Positions 11,379 through 21,840 of a stretch of 31,600 bases of DNA are shown piece after piece. The stretch is taken from assembly GCA_964388035.1 (NCBI GenBank), contig CAYLZE010000057.1, positions 1 through 31,600 on the forward strand, given 5' to 3'. Every line of letters starts with the position of its first letter. Position 1 is the stretch's first letter. The position numbers and the translations under genes were made by a program. Source of the stretch: an uncultured archaeon (GTDB taxonomy: Archaea > Asgardarchaeota > Lokiarchaeia > Sigyniarchaeales > SOKP01). The notes below the pieces were generated by a model, which was given only the letters and a program-made list of their open reading frames with translations, ran no database searches and was not told the DNA's origin.

Positions 11379-11819
11379 TTAGGTTAATTTTTTTAATGGA
11401 CCTAATTCTTTAATTTGGTTGGTAAATTCGGTTATTAAATCTGCAAACTTCTTACCTTCCGAGGCACTCACCCATTCTAATCTCACACGCCTTCCATCTA
11501 TTCCTAATTGTTTAACAATAATCTCATGTAACTTTTTAAATCTATCACGGGTATATTCATTTCCCGTGATGTAATGGCAATCGCCAATATGACATCCCGT
11601 GATGAGGACACCATCTGCTCCATCTTTCAGTGCCTTCATAATAAAGGAAGGATCAACTCTTCCCGAGCACATGACGCGAACAATTCTCATGTTAGGTGGA
11701 TATTGAAAACGAGAAACTCCTGCTAAATCTGCACCAGCATAAGAACACCAATTACAACAAAAGGTTAATATTTCTGGATTAAATTCCGTTTTTGCTTCTT
11801 TTTTTTTTGATTTTGACAT
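11379..11819 (-). CDS. mvhD: MvhD/FlpD [2Fe-2S] subunit, cysteine form
   Basis: FCCNWCSYAGADLAG, RVMCSGRVD, GCHIGDCHY and WVSASEG. SD AGGTGAG upstream. Confidence 0.95.
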   Translation of the reverse strand: MSKSKKKEAKTEFNPEILTFCCNWCSYAGADLAGVSRFQYPPNMRIVRVMCSGRVDPSFIMKALKDGADGVLITGCHIGDCHYITGNEYTRDRFKKLHEIIVKQLGIDGRRVRLEWVSASEGKKFADLITEFTNQIKELGPLKKLT

Positions 11820-11843
11820 TTCTTTCTCACCTGTTTAATAAAT

Positions 11844-14800
11844 TCATTCCTCCAATAGATATGCTTCAATCATCTCGTAAATTTGATCGAAATCATAATG
11901 CTTAACGGAGATTGCTCCATTCGGGCATGTCGCGGCACACGTTCCACAACCTTTGCATAAGGCGCTATTGATAAAAGATTTTTTTAGAACAAGATTCACA
12001 TCCTCAAATTCCATTAACGCCTCTTTAATTTCAATGGCATTGTATGGGCAAACAGACTTGCATTTTCCACAACCTATACATCTTGAAGGTATTACTTCCG
12101 CTATTAATCCAGAAGTTTTAATCGTTTTGGCACTCAAAAATCTACTTGCCCGTCCAGCGGCGCCGTTCGCTTGCGAAATCGAATCTTGTATGTTTTTTGG
12201 CCATTGAGCACACCCCGCAAGAAAGATTCCATCCGTAGCAAAATCAAGAGGTCTCAATTTAACATGAGCTTCTAAAAAGAACCCGTTTTTATCAAGAGGT
12301 ACTTTTAACATTTTCGCTAATTCCGTGAGGTTATCCGCGGGGATCATGGGAGTAGATAAAATGATTGCATCCGTATCAAATTCGATTTGATCTTGTAAAT
12401 TTGTATCGAATACCTCAATTCTAAATCCACTCGTCTTATCCTTCTTTTTAGTAATTTTTGGTAGGTTATCCAAATCATATCTTAAAAACATGGCATCTCT
12501 TCTTCGATCTCGATAATATCTTTCAAATTCTTTTTTTGCCATTTGAATATCCCGATATAAAAGAATAATCTCTAAATCAGGCTTTAATTCTTTAAGGATG
12601 CCAATATTTTTTATGCTCACACCACAACACACGTTAGAACAATAGGTAATTCCTTCTGGTTGACGAGCATTCACACATAAAATCATGGTAATCCGTTTTA
12701 TCTCATCTAACCAAGAGAGATCTTTATTTTTTAATCTCTGTTCGAGCTCTAACTGTGTTAAGACATTTTTACTCTCGGGTTTATATTGAAATAATCCTTC
12801 AGGCTTAAACTCTTGGGCACCTGTAGCCACGATAATTGTACCTACTGCTTTTTCGTGAGGATTTTGTTTTGAATCGAGTATTGTTACTTTGTAGTTTCCT
12901 ATATATCCTTTAATATCTTGGAGTTTGGAAGTTAAAAATAACTCAATGTTATTGTTTTTTTCGACTTTATTTTTTATATCGTTTAAAATAATAGATGCAT
13001 CTTGTTGGATGGGATATAAAATATTAAGATTTTTCAAGTTTCCTCCTAATTCATTTTCTTTTTCAACCAGAAACACTTTAAATCCTTGATTAGCAATGTT
13101 TAACGCTGCAGTCATCCCGGAGATACCACCCCCTATTATTAACGTGGTAGGAATGATATCTAATTTTTCTTCCTTAAGTGGTTTTAACAATCGGGATTTT
13201 GCAACTGCCATCCTAATTAAGTCTTTAGCTTTATCCGTTGCAGCTTTATTATCTCCCATGTGAACCCAAGAGCATTGATCTCGAATATTTACCATTTCAA
13301 ATAAATATTTATTCAGGCCTGCCTCTTCACAAGTTTCTTGAAACAAGGATTCATGAGTTCTTGGCGTACAAGAGGCAACAATAAATCTATTCATTTTATA
13401 TTCCTCTATCATTTGCTTTATCCTTGCTTGTGAATCACTGGAACAACTATAAAGATTAGCTTCGCAATGAACTACAAACGGTAGCTTATTCACATATTCA
13501 ACCACGGTCGAAACATCCACGTATTTTCCGATATTAATTCCACAATGACACACAAGCACTCCAATCCTTGGTTGATCAGAGATTTTTACCTCAATCTCTG
13601 GGACCGTGAATATTTTTTCTTTAACTTGAGTATACTTAACAGAATTTAATAAATTAGCCACTTGAGAGGCTACCCCACTAGCATCTGCCACCGTTTCCGG
13701 TATGTCCATTGGTCCTTGGCAAAACCCGCATAGAAATATACCTTCCTTCGTTGCTACTGACTTATTAAAATAATCTTTTTCTTGGAAAAAATCATATCCA
13801 TCTAATTTTACATCTAAGATTCTTGCCAATTCCTTAACACCTTCAGAAGGTACCAACGGTGTGGCGAGTACGACCAAATTTGCTTCAAAATCATTAAATT
13901 CCCCCGTTTTAAGATCTTCATAATGGATGATTAAATCCTTAGTCTCGGGATTTTCTTCTATAGTACTTATTTTGGTTTGAAAATATTTAACGCCATACTC
14001 TTCCTGAGCTCTTGTAGTAAATTCATAAAAATTTTTCCCATACGCTCTTATATCATGTCGAAATACAAAACATTTCGACTTTTCAGAGTGTTCTTTTGTT
14101 ATTATGGCTTCTTTTGCTGTATACATGCAACACACGCTGGAACAATACGGCACCCCTTCGTGTAAATCCCTTGAACCTGCACATTGAACGAAGGCAATTT
14201 TTTTAGGTTCTTCCTGATCGCTCGGACGGAGCACATGTCCTCCAAAAGGACCCGAAGCACATAAGATTCTTTCATATTCCAAGGCACTCACCACGTTCTC
14301 GTGGCGATATCCCCACCTTGAAGATAATTTCTCCGCTGGCATGTCAAATCCAGTGGCAACCACTATGGCTCCTACTTTAATTTCAATATCCTTGGCTTTT
14401 TGTTCATAGTTTATGGCTTCTGCCTTGCATACTTTTTGACAAACACCGCATACTCCTTTTGTTAATTTCAAGCAAAGTTCAGGATCAATTAAGTAAATGG
14501 GCGGTACAGCTTGAGGAAAAGGAATATAAATTGATTTTCGTTTTCCCAAATTCATATCAAAAAGATTAGGTACTTCAATCTTAGGACACTTCGCTGCACA
14601 ATCACCACAACCCTTGCACTTTGTTTCGTCTATATAACGAGGCTTTTTTGTTACTATAACAGTAAAATTCCCAGGTCCTCCCGATACATTTTTCACTTCA
14701 TGATACGTCATTAGTTCTATATTCGGATTTCTAAAGACCTCAACCATCTTAGGTGCTAAAATACAGAGACTACAATCATTCGTAGGAAAAGTTTTATCCA

Positions 14801-14933
14801 GCTGGGACATTCGACCTCCAATGGAGGGGGTTTTTTCTACTAAATAGACTTTAAATCCAAGCTCTGTTAGATCTAATGAAGTTTGAATTCCAGCGATTCC
14901 CCCACCAATAACTAAGACCGAACCCTCCATCAT
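11844..14933 (-). CDS. hdrA: Large HdrA-like flavoprotein with two FAD modules (1029 aa), cysteine form
   Basis: GGGIAG, DKTFPTNDCSLC, inserted ferredoxin, QCAGSRD...YCSSVCC, internal VCHCGINI...SCTPRTHE...NIRDQCSW domain, second GGGISG and C-terminal 2x[4Fe-4S]. The start overlaps the upstream stop (TAATG). Confidence 0.93.
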   Translation of the reverse strand: MMEGSVLVIGGGIAGIQTSLDLTELGFKVYLVEKTPSIGGRMSQLDKTFPTNDCSLCILAPKMVEVFRNPNIELMTYHEVKNVSGGPGNFTVIVTKKPRYIDETKCKGCGDCAAKCPKIEVPNLFDMNLGKRKSIYIPFPQAVPPIYLIDPELCLKLTKGVCGVCQKVCKAEAINYEQKAKDIEIKVGAIVVATGFDMPAEKLSSRWGYRHENVVSALEYERILCASGPFGGHVLRPSDQEEPKKIAFVQCAGSRDLHEGVPYCSSVCCMYTAKEAIITKEHSEKSKCFVFRHDIRAYGKNFYEFTTRAQEEYGVKYFQTKISTIEENPETKDLIIHYEDLKTGEFNDFEANLVVLATPLVPSEGVKELARILDVKLDGYDFFQEKDYFNKSVATKEGIFLCGFCQGPMDIPETVADASGVASQVANLLNSVKYTQVKEKIFTVPEIEVKISDQPRIGVLVCHCGINIGKYVDVSTVVEYVNKLPFVVHCEANLYSCSSDSQARIKQMIEEYKMNRFIVASCTPRTHESLFQETCEEAGLNKYLFEMVNIRDQCSWVHMGDNKAATDKAKDLIRMAVAKSRLLKPLKEEKLDIIPTTLIIGGGISGMTAALNIANQGFKVFLVEKENELGGNLKNLNILYPIQQDASIILNDIKNKVEKNNNIELFLTSKLQDIKGYIGNYKVTILDSKQNPHEKAVGTIIVATGAQEFKPEGLFQYKPESKNVLTQLELEQRLKNKDLSWLDEIKRITMILCVNARQPEGITYCSNVCCGVSIKNIGILKELKPDLEIILLYRDIQMAKKEFERYYRDRRRDAMFLRYDLDNLPKITKKKDKTSGFRIEVFDTNLQDQIEFDTDAIILSTPMIPADNLTELAKMLKVPLDKNGFFLEAHVKLRPLDFATDGIFLAGCAQWPKNIQDSISQANGAAGRASRFLSAKTIKTSGLIAEVIPSRCIGCGKCKSVCPYNAIEIKEALMEFEDVNLVLKKSFINSALCKGCGTCAATCPNGAISVKHYDFDQIYEMIEAYLLEE

Positions 14934-17351: not shown

Positions 17352-18860
17352 TTATTTTTCTTCCTTTGGGGCATTTAATTGAACAGGTTTACATTTACTT
17401 CTTTTACTCCCACCAATTCTTTCAACCAAAAATAGCCCTGGTTTCACGTCTTTTAATTTTTTAGACTCCAATAAGCCCGCTTTTTCAGCATTTTTAAAGA
17501 TTTCCAAGCACTCTTCGGAACGAATCACCACGGATGACCATCCAGCTTGAGACCCGATGGAGCCAACTGAAAAATCGCTGAAATCAGAAGTCAAGTCTTC
17601 ACAGAAATGACAAGTATTGCGGGCATAAGATTGAACTTCTTTCAAAGGAACATCTAATTCTTCTCCATTTTTCAAATTTATGATGAATTTTCCCGAATCA
17701 ATATTCATTTTGGTTAGGTCATTGATATCTTTTTTGAATTTCTCACTTATCAATTTTTTAGTATCGTCATAGGAAAATGACTCCATGCAAAATAAACCAA
17801 TCCTATATTTAATATTCTTGAAAAAAGGAAGCCCGCTTGGAAATAACGTGGCTTTATACAGAGCCTTCATCATGCAAGGAACACCTACAACAGCGATCCT
17901 ATCATACTTTTTGGCTTGATCGATAATGCCCAAAGTGGGGGCATTTGCATATTTAGTTCCTGCCGTTTTATATAAATCCTTCACGCTTTCAACGATCACG
18001 GGTTCAGGTTTCCAAAGATCTTTAGAATGCTGAACGGCAATAATCGCATCAACCAAGTCATTTTCCAAGAGATATTGTAGGAGTGTAGTAACCACCCCTC
18101 CATCCTGGCGAACCTTCTTAATATCATCAATTTTTGTGCTTGCCGTAAAAGTTTCTACGTAAGCACCAATTTTATCGGAAAATTTTAAATTTTTATCAAT
18201 TTTCTTAATAGCCGCATAAGCCCTATCAATAGAAAAGGAGCGTGGGCACACCGAAAAACAGAGACCACATTTTATGCAGACTTCTTTATCAATTTCGAGG
18301 GTATCTGCTGAAACTGTAATGGCATCCAACGGACAAACCGAAGAGCACCATCCACAATTACAACATACCCCAGAATCAAACACGATGGTTACTGGTTCAA
18401 AAAAATGTTCCTTGAAATTTGGGGATAACACTTTTGCTTGGTATCGATAAAAATACTCCTTGACCTCAACTTCTTTTTCTTCATCCTTTATTTTTTTTAT
18501 TTCCGTGTGAGTTTTAATTTCGACTTGTTCTTCAACATATCCTTGTTCTTTTAAATAAAAGATATCCCGAACCACGTTTTCTGGAGGTATGTCTTGAATT
18601 AACTTCACTACATCCTCTATAAACATTGGTTCTTTATTTGTCAACCGTTCAAGAACTAATGCGCGTTCGGTTTCCGCATCTATCATGGAATCTAAAATAT
18701 CATAAAATTCTTGCTCGGAAAATTTTCCATGTTCTATAATCTCTTCTTTTGCTTCAAAAAATGCCCTCACTTGAAAATTTTCGATTGCCTTGTAAGTAGC
18801 TTCCATCAACTCCTTTGGAGCGCTATTATTTAAATCAACTTTTTTTATTGTTTGAACCAT
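17352..18860 (-). CDS. FrhB/FdhB family F420-binding subunit with ~155-aa N-terminal extension
   Basis: CCNCGWCSSVCP, CIKCGLCFSVCP, QDGGVVT, AGTKY, VGVPC, IGLFCMESF, CHFCED and SVGSIGS. Confidence 0.92.
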   Translation of the reverse strand: MVQTIKKVDLNNSAPKELMEATYKAIENFQVRAFFEAKEEIIEHGKFSEQEFYDILDSMIDAETERALVLERLTNKEPMFIEDVVKLIQDIPPENVVRDIFYLKEQGYVEEQVEIKTHTEIKKIKDEEKEVEVKEYFYRYQAKVLSPNFKEHFFEPVTIVFDSGVCCNCGWCSSVCPLDAITVSADTLEIDKEVCIKCGLCFSVCPRSFSIDRAYAAIKKIDKNLKFSDKIGAYVETFTASTKIDDIKKVRQDGGVVTTLLQYLLENDLVDAIIAVQHSKDLWKPEPVIVESVKDLYKTAGTKYANAPTLGIIDQAKKYDRIAVVGVPCMMKALYKATLFPSGLPFFKNIKYRIGLFCMESFSYDDTKKLISEKFKKDINDLTKMNIDSGKFIINLKNGEELDVPLKEVQSYARNTCHFCEDLTSDFSDFSVGSIGSQAGWSSVVIRSEECLEIFKNAEKAGLLESKKLKDVKPGLFLVERIGGSKRSKCKPVQLNAPKEEK

Positions 18861-18919
18861 TCCGTTAAAACAACCTTTTCATTTTACTTTTTTTTATATT
18901 TAAATAAAAATGGTGATTT

Positions 18920-18993
18920 CTAACCCCAACCCTTGCTTGAGTTAGTTTTCTCGTAACTAAGATTTTTTTACAAGAATCATTCCACGGGGTTAG
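18920..18993 (-). promoter_or_regulatory. Candidate SECIS element (3' stem-loop immediately after the Sec-mvhD stop)
   Basis: mRNA CUAACCCC-GUGGAAUGAUUCUUGUAAAAAAAUCUUAGUUACGAGAAAACUAACUCAAGCAAGGGUU-GGGGUUAG. It has a perfect 8-bp closing helix, further internal helices, AUGA/GAA and an unpaired A-run. Its position fits a SECIS, but a canonical tandem G.A core is not cleanly formed. Confidence 0.6.
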
Positions 18994-19437
18994 TTAAACT
19001 TTGGCTTTTTTCTTTGTCGTGTTTTTTCCAGAAGATCTAAGAGGATTTATTCCTATCCGCTTGATTTTTTCGTAGGTATCTTCCACGCTCTTCACAAATT
19101 TCTCTCCTTCTGCACTGCTTAACCAATACATGTTAATTCTCTGATCTCCAAATCCTCTTCTGCTCAAGATACGATTGGCAAAATCGACGTGCTTTTGAGC
19201 GGTAAAATTGCCGTTCTTAAATTGGCATTCGTTGGGTCGTCATCCAACCACCATTACTCCATCAGCACCGGATTTTATTGCATAGATAATATGCTTTACA
19301 TCCACTCTACCCGTACACCTGACCTTTATAATGCGTACTGAAGGAGTATATTTTAACCGAGAGACGCCTGCTAAATCTGCAGCACCGTAACCTCATTTTA
19401 AACAGCAAAAAGCAATGATTTTAAAGTTGTTTTCCAT
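18994..19437 (-). CDS. mvhD: Selenoprotein MvhD/VhuD (147 aa, two Sec), absent from the ORF track
   Basis: Manual translation gives MENNFKIIAFCCLK-U-GYGAADLAGVSR...VRCTGRVD...GADGVMVVG-U-RPNECQFKNGN...YWLSSAEGEKF...KAKV*. TGA at 19393-19395 (codon 15) and 19240-19242 (codon 66) align to Cys of the paralog at 11379..11819. SD GGAGG, TAA stop. Confidence 0.93.
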
Positions 19438-19441
19438 TTGT

Positions 19442-21424
19442 TTAACCTCCTTCTATTAATCCGTCTAATTCGGCAAATAATTGATGATCCCGATAATATC
19501 GGATGTCAATTGCTTGCGTGGGACAGCATGTGGAACATATACCGCATCCAGTGCAATTCACTTCATCTACAGATGCTATCTCATTCTCATTTACTCGAAT
19601 CGCCCCTTGGGGACATTCTCGTTGACATCGCCGACAACCAATGCATAAATCAGGATCCACTTCTGCAATAATCATCTCTAAATCCACCTTGCCAGGGGCG
19701 GTTAATTCCGCTACTTTACTGGCAGCCGCACGAGCTTGAGAGACAGAATATGCTATATCCTTGGGACCTTGTGCAAATCCTGCTATGAAAATACCCTTCG
19801 TTTTAGTTTCTTGTGGCATGAGACCGAAATGGGATTCCGTTAAAAATCCATATTGATCCTTATCAAGATTTAATACTTTGGCGATTTGTTCCGTTCCCTT
19901 CGAAGGTAATGCAGCAGAGGATAATACCACGAGATCCGCATCAATATTGATTATTTCATCGGTTAAAGACGAATATACTCGAACCTTGATGTTTTTTGTT
20001 TTAGGATCTTCTTTCAATTCTCCCACTTTGCCCCGTATCATGCGAATATCGGAATCCTTGGCTCTTTGATAATATTCTTCAAAACCTTTTTCACTCGTTC
20101 GAATATCGATGTAGCAAATAGTGATTTTAGCATTAGGAAATTCCTCTTTCAAAAGTTTTGCATTTTTCAACGCAAGCATGCAGCACACGCCACTACAATA
20201 GGTTCTTTCAGTTTCCCTGGATCCCACGCATTGAATGAATACAATTTCTTCCGGTTTCTTATTATCGGATATGCGGTGGATATGGCCTTCCAACGGCCCA
20301 TTAGGAGCAAGGATCCGCTCTAATTGGGATTGTGTAATAACATTTTCAAACTCACCATATCCATACTCACCGTAGGGTTCATAAATGTCCCAACCCGTTG
20401 CAACTATGATGGATCCAACTTTAAATGTAACTTCCTCCGGTTTTTGGCTGAAATCTATGGCATGTAACTCGCAAGCATCCACGCATGAAAAGCATTCCAC
20501 GCACGAAGTTCTTTGGATATCATATAAGAAGGGGACGGCTTGACCAAAGGCAATGTCTATAGCTTTTCGAGCACCTAAATTTTCATCGAAGAAATTGGAG
20601 GTATACACGGGACACACTTCTGAGCAAGCACCACATCCATTACATAGATCAGTATTGATGTATCTTGGTTTCTTTTCCACGGTGACTTCATAATTGCCCA
20701 CGTATCCTTCCACTTTTTTCACTTCACTATAGCTAAACAGTTGAATATTCTCATTCCGATTGACGTCTAACATTTTGGGCCCACAGATTCAAATTGCACA
20801 ATCATCCGTGGGAAAGGTCCGATCTAATTGCGCCATTCTGCCTCCGATGGTAGTTCTGCTTTCCACCAAGTAAACTTTAATTCCTTCATTCGCAAGATCC
20901 AAGGCAGCATTCATCCCGGCAATGCCTCCACCGACGACTAAAGTTGCTTTTTCCACGGGAAAGGTCTTGACGGGTACCACGTCCAATAATCGCGCTCTTT
21001 CTATTCCCCCTTTTAATAGAATTTTAGCTTTTTCGGTAGCTTCTTCTTTTTCTTGGGTGACCCAACTGCAGTGCTCTCGCACATTTATCATCTGAAAATA
21101 GTAGGGATTTAATCCTGCTTTTGCAATCGAGCCGCGATAGATGGGTTCGTGGGTTCTTGGGGTTCAAGCAGACGCAATAATGCGATCTAAATTTTTCTCC
21201 TTGATATTTTGCATGATCTCATTCTGCCCCGATTCAGTACAAAGGAACGAATGTGTTTTAGCAACGACAATATCATCAAAAGTTTTCGCATATTCAACGA
21301 GTTTATCACAGTCGACTTTAGATTTAATGTTAATTCCTCACTGACAAGCAAAAAAGCCCATTCGCAGTTTTTCTTCGCTTCTTTTTCCTTGACTGGGTTT
21401 ATCTTCCATCTTTTTTTTCTCCAT
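19442..21424 (-). CDS. hdrA: Selenoprotein heterodisulfide reductase subunit A (660 aa, three Sec)
   Basis: One continuous frame from ATG 21424 (or 21409) to TAA 19442 with TGA at 21338-21340 (FACQ-U-GINI), 21164-21166 (IASA-U-TPRTHE) and 20789-20791 (FPTDDCAI-U-ICGPKM). It joins ORF-track pieces 20789..21091 and 19442..20773 into a canonical-length HdrA. Confidence 0.93.
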
Positions 21425-21840
21425 TCACCTCTAATTTACTAATATAACCTAATATAATTTTTTAATAAGTTTTTCAGATCTTTTAACTATAATCTGATTC
21501 TAGTTTAAATCAAATTTCGAAAAGTTTTATTCTTTTTCATTTAGAATGATAATTATTATATAAATTTTAATGATAATTCTATTTATACTTAACTAACTAT
21601 CTTAATAAGTCAAATCCGAAAATACAATTAACAATTTTAGTAATTTTATTACATCTCGATAATTTTAGATAAAAAAGTGGGCGAAAGAAATTAAAATTAG
21701 TATTCCACTATCAATAAAATAGATTTTTTATGAGATTTATATTCTAATTCACCGTAAAATGATGGTTTTTAATATTTTCAGAGAAATTTTTTTATTTAAA
21801 ATCGAGGTTTCCAACCTTAATTTTATCTTTAAAAAGAATA

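Follow-up and report, generated by a model that had tools for sequence, protein, structure and literature searches.

The 74-nt RNA element that follows vhuD on the minus strand of this DNA is, with a probability that we put at about 0.88, the SECIS of a Lokiarchaeial (Promethearchaeota) hdrA-vhuD operon, of the kind described as lokiSECIS or as Asgard type I eSECIS-like, its function being assigned by analogy. The reading is carried by three things that we observe, namely the anatomy of the element, its conservation and covariation among relatives, and its exclusive tie to UGA-containing genes. The initial annotation had suggested a SECIS in the 3' UTR of vhuD (there called mvhD) as the sole one available to both cistrons and their five UGA codons, and this part of it held up well, the element being the only match in the window, by which we mean the whole 31.6-kb stretch of DNA that was analysed. 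The genes concerned are laid out as follows.

21424 to 19442, minus strand: hdrA, Sec-type, 660 codons, with UGA at codons 29 (21340-21338), 87 (21166-21164) and 212 (20791-20789)
19446 to 19450, minus strand: GGAGG, Shine-Dalgarno sequence for vhuD, within the final hdrA codons
19441 to 19438, minus strand: ACAA, the 4-nt gap between hdrA and vhuD, after the hdrA stop
19437 to 18994, minus strand: vhuD/mvhD (FlpD family), 147 codons, with UGA at codons 15 (19395-19393) and 66 (19242-19240)

The product of the Sec-type hdrA has Fer4 and FAD-oxidoreductase domains, and that of vhuD/mvhD matches Pfam FlpD (4e-46). Both genes end in UAA, that of vhuD being at 18996-18994 on the minus strand, and they are indeed 4 nt apart as first annotated. 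Because the gap is so short and the GGAGG lies inside the last hdrA codons, we infer that hdrA and vhuD are on one mRNA. Across 30 orthologous loci the gap ranges from -11 to 22 nt, and in most of them a GGAGG- or GAGG-like purine run can be seen by eye just 5' of the vhuD start.

All five UGAs are upstream of the AUGA that begins at 18980, at distances of 2360, 2186, 1811, 415 and 262 nt. The first UGA (21340) is 2347 nt from the start of the element at 18993, and the coordinates thus confirm the earlier description of a structured element right after the mvhD stop and about 2.35 kb from the first UGA. The three hdrA UGAs align with Cys codons in a Cys-type HdrA-like paralogue in the same window, and both vhuD UGAs align with Cys codons of a Cys-type vhuD at 11379-11819. 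No other gene of the 31.6-kb window has an internal UGA, the remaining odd TGAs being terminal stops. We considered the 1032-codon ORF at 11835-14933 as a further selenoprotein gene and rejected it, as its single TGA, at codon 1030, is a normal stop.

The Cys-type genes just mentioned make up a second copy of the hdrA-vhuD module, without a SECIS, about 4 kb downstream (11379-14933, minus strand), in which a gene for a 1029-codon double HdrA-like protein (11844-14933) is followed by the Cys-type vhuD (11379-11819). Two FrhB-like genes and an HdrB/C-like CCG-domain gene are situated between the Sec and Cys modules. As the Cys-type module adjoins on the same strand, Sec and Cys isoforms are present in one cluster.

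With regard to the element itself, the parts that we distinguish are these.

18920 to 18993, minus strand: whole SECIS module, modelled as a three-way junction (covariance model 70.9 bits, E 5e-18; minimum-energy fold -20.9 kcal/mol)
18986 to 18993, minus strand: 5' strand of the lower helix P1, CUAACCCC, paired to 18927-18920
18977 to 18984, minus strand: 5' side of the predicted k-turn, with C-stem UGG, bulge AAU, then G and A, the AUGA being 18980-18977
18948 to 18976, minus strand: SECIS hairpin (fold B), a 9-bp stem UUCUUGUAA/UUACGAGAA with an 11-nt loop AAAAAUCUUAG
18943 to 18947, minus strand: 3' side of the predicted k-turn, AA (2n, 1n; the AUGA_AA variant), then CUA, the 3' strand of the C-stem
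18928 to 18942, minus strand: third arm, a small hairpin (A)CUC-AAGCAA-GGG(U) that abuts the 3' strand of P1
18920 to 18927, minus strand: 3' strand of P1, GGGGUUAG, placed by the minimum-energy fold and by covariation
18906 to 18910, minus strand: U5 tract, 9 nt past the element, a possible transcript end

The first base of the element, 18993, adjoins the UAA of vhuD and its last is 18920, and in RNA order it reads CUAACCCC-G-UGG-AAU-GA-[UUCUUGUAA]-AAAAAUCUUAG-[UUACGAGAA]-AA-CUA-(A)CUC-AAGCAA-GGG(U)-U-GGGGUUAG. The SECIS stem has nine pairs, one of them G·U, with no mismatches, and its loop has the form AAAAA....AG. In our model the k-turn arm, the lower helix of 6-8 bp and the small hairpin meet in a tight three-way junction. 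The minimum-energy fold includes the small hairpin both here and in most relatives, and RNAalifold predicts it too; its third pair co-varies (UA 14, CG 5, AU 3). The consensus for this arm is CCY-YGCRA-RGG, where the present element has CUC-AAGCAA-GGG, and among the paralogous elements of the genome the stem varies (AUGG/CCAU, CGGU/ACCG, UAGGA/UCCUA). A GNRA tetraloop was considered for its loop and rejected, as that register fits only some of the sequences, and a 3-bp stem with a 5-nt loop is by eye the better description.

The element is present in all 30 of the orthologous loci from same-class relatives and in 45/45 Promethearchaeota records, two sets that may overlap. In the covariance-model alignment of 36 sequences the three-helix structure is paired in 91.9% of cells, a figure favoured by the leaning of such an alignment toward the modelled structure, and 16 of the 18 pairs change on both sides. 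This is reached in 0/500 shuffles, a control that overstates significance as the orthologues are related sequences, and when the partners are slid by 1-3 columns only 42-55% of cells are paired. Taken by helix, over the same 36 sequences, all nine pairs of the SECIS stem have compensatory changes with 94% of cells paired, and in P1 all six modelled pairs vary on both sides with 88% of cells paired. RNAalifold run on a structure-blind MAFFT alignment independently returned the SECIS stem and the side hairpin, and over 37 elements the SECIS stem has a median probability of 0.94. The single-sequence fold is only modestly unusual (z -1.9). Conservation and covariation in relatives were named in the initial annotation as a test of the idea that this is a SECIS, and both were found, in its favour.

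In 22 of the 30 orthologues the UGA within the AUGA is in frame and is the first stop of vhuD, and 20 of those 22 have an in-frame UAA three codons on, at the top of the stem. The vhuD gene of the window differs from those orthologues in having its UAA 16 nt before the AUGA, and the SECIS match begins 13 nt after the stop. The overlap of the vhuD stop with the AUGA is mentioned by Huang 2024 (PMC11227280), citing Mariotti.

The closing helix CUAACCCC/GGGGUUAG was originally drawn as enclosing two mutually exclusive folds, called A and B, and all of these pairings can be drawn as described. The further proposal of a switchable SECIS did not stand. Such a switch would have the element pass between folds A and B, say in response to the supply of selenium or to passing ribosomes, and so toggle Sec insertion, and we regard it as very improbable. 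It is true that fold A, at -18.8 kcal/mol, is only 2.1 kcal/mol above the minimum, which is fold B at -20.9, and that a similar alternative is found at +2.3 kcal/mol in L002, a relative in the same genus. Nevertheless the mean pair probability here is 0.02 for fold A as against 0.92 for fold B, and the energy model omits the non-canonical pairs of the k-turn, which favour fold B. In the relatives the fold A pairs are formed in 65.2% of cells of the 36-sequence model alignment, a level reached by 124/500 shuffles, and in 61.3% of cells of the structure-blind MAFFT alignment of 30 relatives, where 68/500 shuffles reach it; neither alignment has any excess covariation for these pairs. Pairing of any fold-A-like kind has a median probability of 0.015 over 37 elements. 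By suboptimal enumeration, 50 of 61 elements have competing folds other than the SECIS that come within 4 kcal/mol, and these folds are heterogeneous, differing from one another as expected by chance for weak AU-rich stems, with the fold-A pattern seen only in this genome and its congener L002. As its pairing equals that of column shuffles, with no excess covariation, and the alternatives are heterogeneous, fold A is not a conserved switch: it is an incidental suboptimal product of a weak AU-rich stem and has no role.

Fold B, with the AUGA before it, has the pattern of a k-turn, and we compared 61 distinct elements in this respect. The pair closing the C-helix (formed by the base 5' of the bulge and the one that follows the RA dinucleotide) is G-C in 59/61, G·U in one and A-U in one, and the bulge is AAU in 57/61. 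The G·A pair is invariant, and the pair after it is A·G in 51 elements and A·A in the other 10, so that the stem is followed by GA in 51/61 elements and by AA in 10/61, with C at position -1n in 59/61. The next pair outward (-2b/-2n) is formed in 77%, which is reached in 3/2000 shuffles. On this sequence pattern (G-C, AAU, G·A/A·A) the core of the SECIS is predicted to be a k-turn of the canonical type, its bulge being 3 nt long. The Lilley laboratory has reportedly described natural k-turns in which 2b·2n is A·A, and the k-turn with a 3-nt bulge is the form bound by L7Ae-type proteins. The eukaryote-like traits ascribed to the element at the outset, the AUGA and the unpaired As, are present, but the archaeal-like GAA bulge is not, the GAA being the closing G of the helix and the first two bases of the putative k-turn bulge.

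The element is best compared with lokiSECIS as defined by Mariotti 2016 (PMC4989117), in which AUGA precedes a stem of exactly 9 bp with an 11-nt apical loop, the loop having five leading As and an "ultraconserved" terminal G, usually preceded by A, and the stem being followed by GA or AA. Here too the AUGA (18980-18977) is directly 5' of the stem, the stem is 9 bp and the loop 11 nt, the first five loop bases are A-rich, the loop ends in AG, and AA is 3' of the stem. The same paper describes a single lokiSECIS behind VhuD, shared with HdrA, which serves as many as six UGAs within about 2 kb, and the present element is likewise just past a gene with Cys-aligned UGAs, with one element per hdrA-vhuD pair. 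It is thus not atypical, as had been thought from the sequence at first, since all of the published lokiSECIS features are found in it and it is typical of its lineage. There are differences, in that it has AA rather than GA, and AA was seen in Mariotti 2016 (PMC4989117) only in VhuU; in that the UAA stop comes 16 nt before the AUGA; and in that it has a lower helix and a 3' side hairpin, which do not appear in the main text of that paper.

In the later survey of Huang, Xiao and Zhang 2024 (PMC11227280), hdrA is in every case adjacent to frhD and shares one element with it, and an AUGA_AA core is reported for hdrA/frhD of Lokiarchaeia, so that AA is a known variant of GA. The Asgard type I eSECIS-like model of that survey has a core GA_[G/A]A, an upper stem of 7-15 bp with no more than 2 mismatches, a loop of 8-20 nt and no ministem, and the present element has all of its defining features (GA_AA, 9 bp, 0 mismatches, 11 nt). 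The model covers only core, upper stem and loop, and the predicted three-way junction falls outside it; the main texts of PMC4989117 and PMC11227280 do not describe the third arm. The SECIS shared by hdrA and vhuD is thus already known, having been published in 2016 and surveyed again in 2024, and only the detail of the k-turn and three-way junction is new here.

The element resembles the eukaryotic SECIS in its 3'-UTR site, the kilobase range over which it would act, the AUGA/GA core and the unpaired As of the apical loop. It differs in its shorter 9-bp stem, in the predicted canonical k-turn with a 3-nt bulge and G-C closure in place of a large internal loop, and in the side hairpin in the junction, which sets it apart from the eukaryotic form (Rfam SECIS_1, with its SBP2-bound k-turn-like core), and no match to that family was found at E 10. 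These archaea are not known to have an SBP2 (Mariotti 2016, PMC4989117). With the SECIS of Methanococcales and Methanopyrus it shares a 3'-UTR site behind the same gene families, and the methanogen VhuD elements also have AUGA and GAC/AAC (Mariotti 2016, PMC4989117). However, the euryarchaeal SECIS (eaSECIS) is defined by two stems, a 5'-GAA/3'-A bulge and an upper stem of 3-6 bp, a description that the present element does not fit. In contrast to the methanogen form, the G of GAA is here paired (G-C in 59/61), AA and U would form the k-turn bulge, the 9-bp stem is AU-rich, and there are no GC-rich stems split by a GAA/A bulge.

It remains to ask whether the element serves hdrA as well as vhuD. 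A covariance model was built from the 30 orthologues and the window scanned with filters off; the best match is the element (70.9 bits, E 5e-18) and the next best scores 12 bits in the 31.6 kb. As the sole match of the model in the window is at this site, there is no second element of this kind for hdrA. At gathering thresholds no Rfam family matched anywhere in the window, and for the Rfam SECIS families nothing was found in 18800-21700 even at E up to 10, where there were only chance snoRNA and sRNA matches; the Rfam SECIS models likewise fail on lokiSECIS (Mariotti 2016, PMC4989117). The possibility that the real SECIS is elsewhere had been raised in the initial annotation, and no other SECIS was found nearby. 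It could still be argued that the element serves vhuD alone and that the three hdrA UGAs use another signal, a structure in the CDS or in the 5' UTR, as 1.8-2.4 kb with a cistron boundary in between is an unusual distance and a covariance model trained on vhuD-type elements could miss one of a different kind. We consider this very improbable, given that the window has no second match above 12 bits and no Rfam SECIS family in 18800-21700, that the 1.5 kb before vhuD has no further element on the forward strand in any of the 30 loci, that two independent published surveys (PMC4989117, PMC11227280) found none, and that the close coupling of hdrA and vhuD is kept across the 30 loci.

The association with Sec genes can be followed through the 5.47-Mb genome. 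A strict motif scan found 9 copies, as against 0-2 in ten shuffled genomes, which is more than chance would give. At least seven of the nine have their AUGA no more than 18 nt past the end of an ORF with in-frame UGA, this ORF being a vhuD gene in four cases and a small one in three. Two more candidates, on C114 and at C9:10884, came from the covariance model. There are four Sec-type hdrA-vhuD pairs in the genome, with UGAs 3+2, 2+2, 2+2 and 2+1, and every one of them has a single canonical element 4-18 nt past the vhuD stop. The canonical element follows none of the 10 Cys-type vhuD genes of the genome, nine having no match and one a weak non-canonical match. Within one genome the element follows gene pairs of the Sec type but not those of the Cys type, and the finding of similar elements behind other selenoprotein genes, which had also been put forward as a test, is borne out by all four Sec-type pairs.

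The small UGA-cluster ORFs followed by a canonical lokiSECIS are at C9:106082(+), C81:2544(+) and C6:94709(-), and their products are of 156, 175 and 116 aa, with the clusters SSSUGUU, HADUU and RSUSGTSC, respectively. Further matches to the model, at 29-44 bits, are at C114:15950-16030(-), C9:10884-10964(-), C9:15423-15503(-) and C90:1734-1813(+), the last of them behind an HdrB-like gene and running into a masked N stretch. Outside this lineage, no match to the Loki model (E 0.001) was found behind VhuD homologues of 44-57% identity, namely L090, L091 and L094 (Jordarchaeia), L092 (a Thermoproteota MAG) and L095-L096 (deltaproteobacteria; Syntrophobacteraceae, Desulforhabdus).

As for the Sec machinery, the genome has SepSecS (3.5e-115). 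Against the SECIS reading, the Rfam tRNA-Sec family RF01852 had no match in this 97%-complete assembly. Aragorn gave just 7 tRNA genes in 5.47 Mb, an output that we do not trust, and the shortfall in tRNAs would come either from genes that are interrupted or missing from the assembly, or from a failure of the tools to detect them in this lineage.

The U5 tract 9 nt past the lower helix, with the following gene beginning at 18860, brings in the possibility that the element is no recoding signal at all and is only a transcription terminator of the operon or a processing hairpin. A run of T5 or more within 48 nt after the element is found for 48% of elements as against 27% of AT-rich control windows. 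This enrichment is weak, however, and a terminator would have no need of an invariant AUGA, an AAU bulge, a stem fixed at 9 bp and an 11-nt AAAAA..AG loop; nor would one expect restriction to UGA genes, where all 4 Sec-type pairs have the canonical copy and the Cys-type vhuD genes have it in 0/10 cases. We regard a terminator or processing signal alone as extremely improbable. A dual role, first as SECIS and then as terminator, is possible and is compatible with our preferred reading of the element as a SECIS.

Under that SECIS reading, hdrA and vhuD would be translated from one mRNA, co-transcription being likely from the layout, with the ribosome-binding site of vhuD inside the end of hdrA. 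The single element in the 3' UTR would fold such that a k-turn bears the 9-bp stem and the A-rich 11-nt loop, all within a three-way junction, and would recruit the Sec-specific elongation factor with Sec-tRNA, either directly or through a k-turn-binding protein, by analogy with the eukaryotic SECIS. Acting at a distance, it would cause each of the five UGAs, the nearest 262 nt and the farthest 2360 nt before the AUGA, to be read by ribosomes as selenocysteine, and the transcript may end at the U5 tract 9 nt past the element. Both the binding of the factor and the insertion of Sec are thus proposed by analogy.

More tentatively, the functional unit may be the whole three-way junction, that is the putative k-turn with the co-varying lower helix and the conserved side hairpin with its YGCRA loop, and not the published hairpin alone. 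The extra arm would then allow action over 2.4 kb and across cistrons, for example by docking an archaeal SECIS-binding factor. We offer this as a possible extension that is on balance doubtful.

That one 3'-UTR signal would recode up to six stops in two cistrons is a striking trait of Asgard selenoprotein genes, and the RNA concerned resembles the eukaryotic element. The locus described here is a further instance of this and not its discovery. What our analysis adds is a clear negative on the idea of a switch, a demonstration within one genome that the element goes with Sec-type but not with Cys-type pairs, and a sharper structure, with a predicted canonical k-turn in a three-way junction, that could guide searches for binding partners and the design of reporters.
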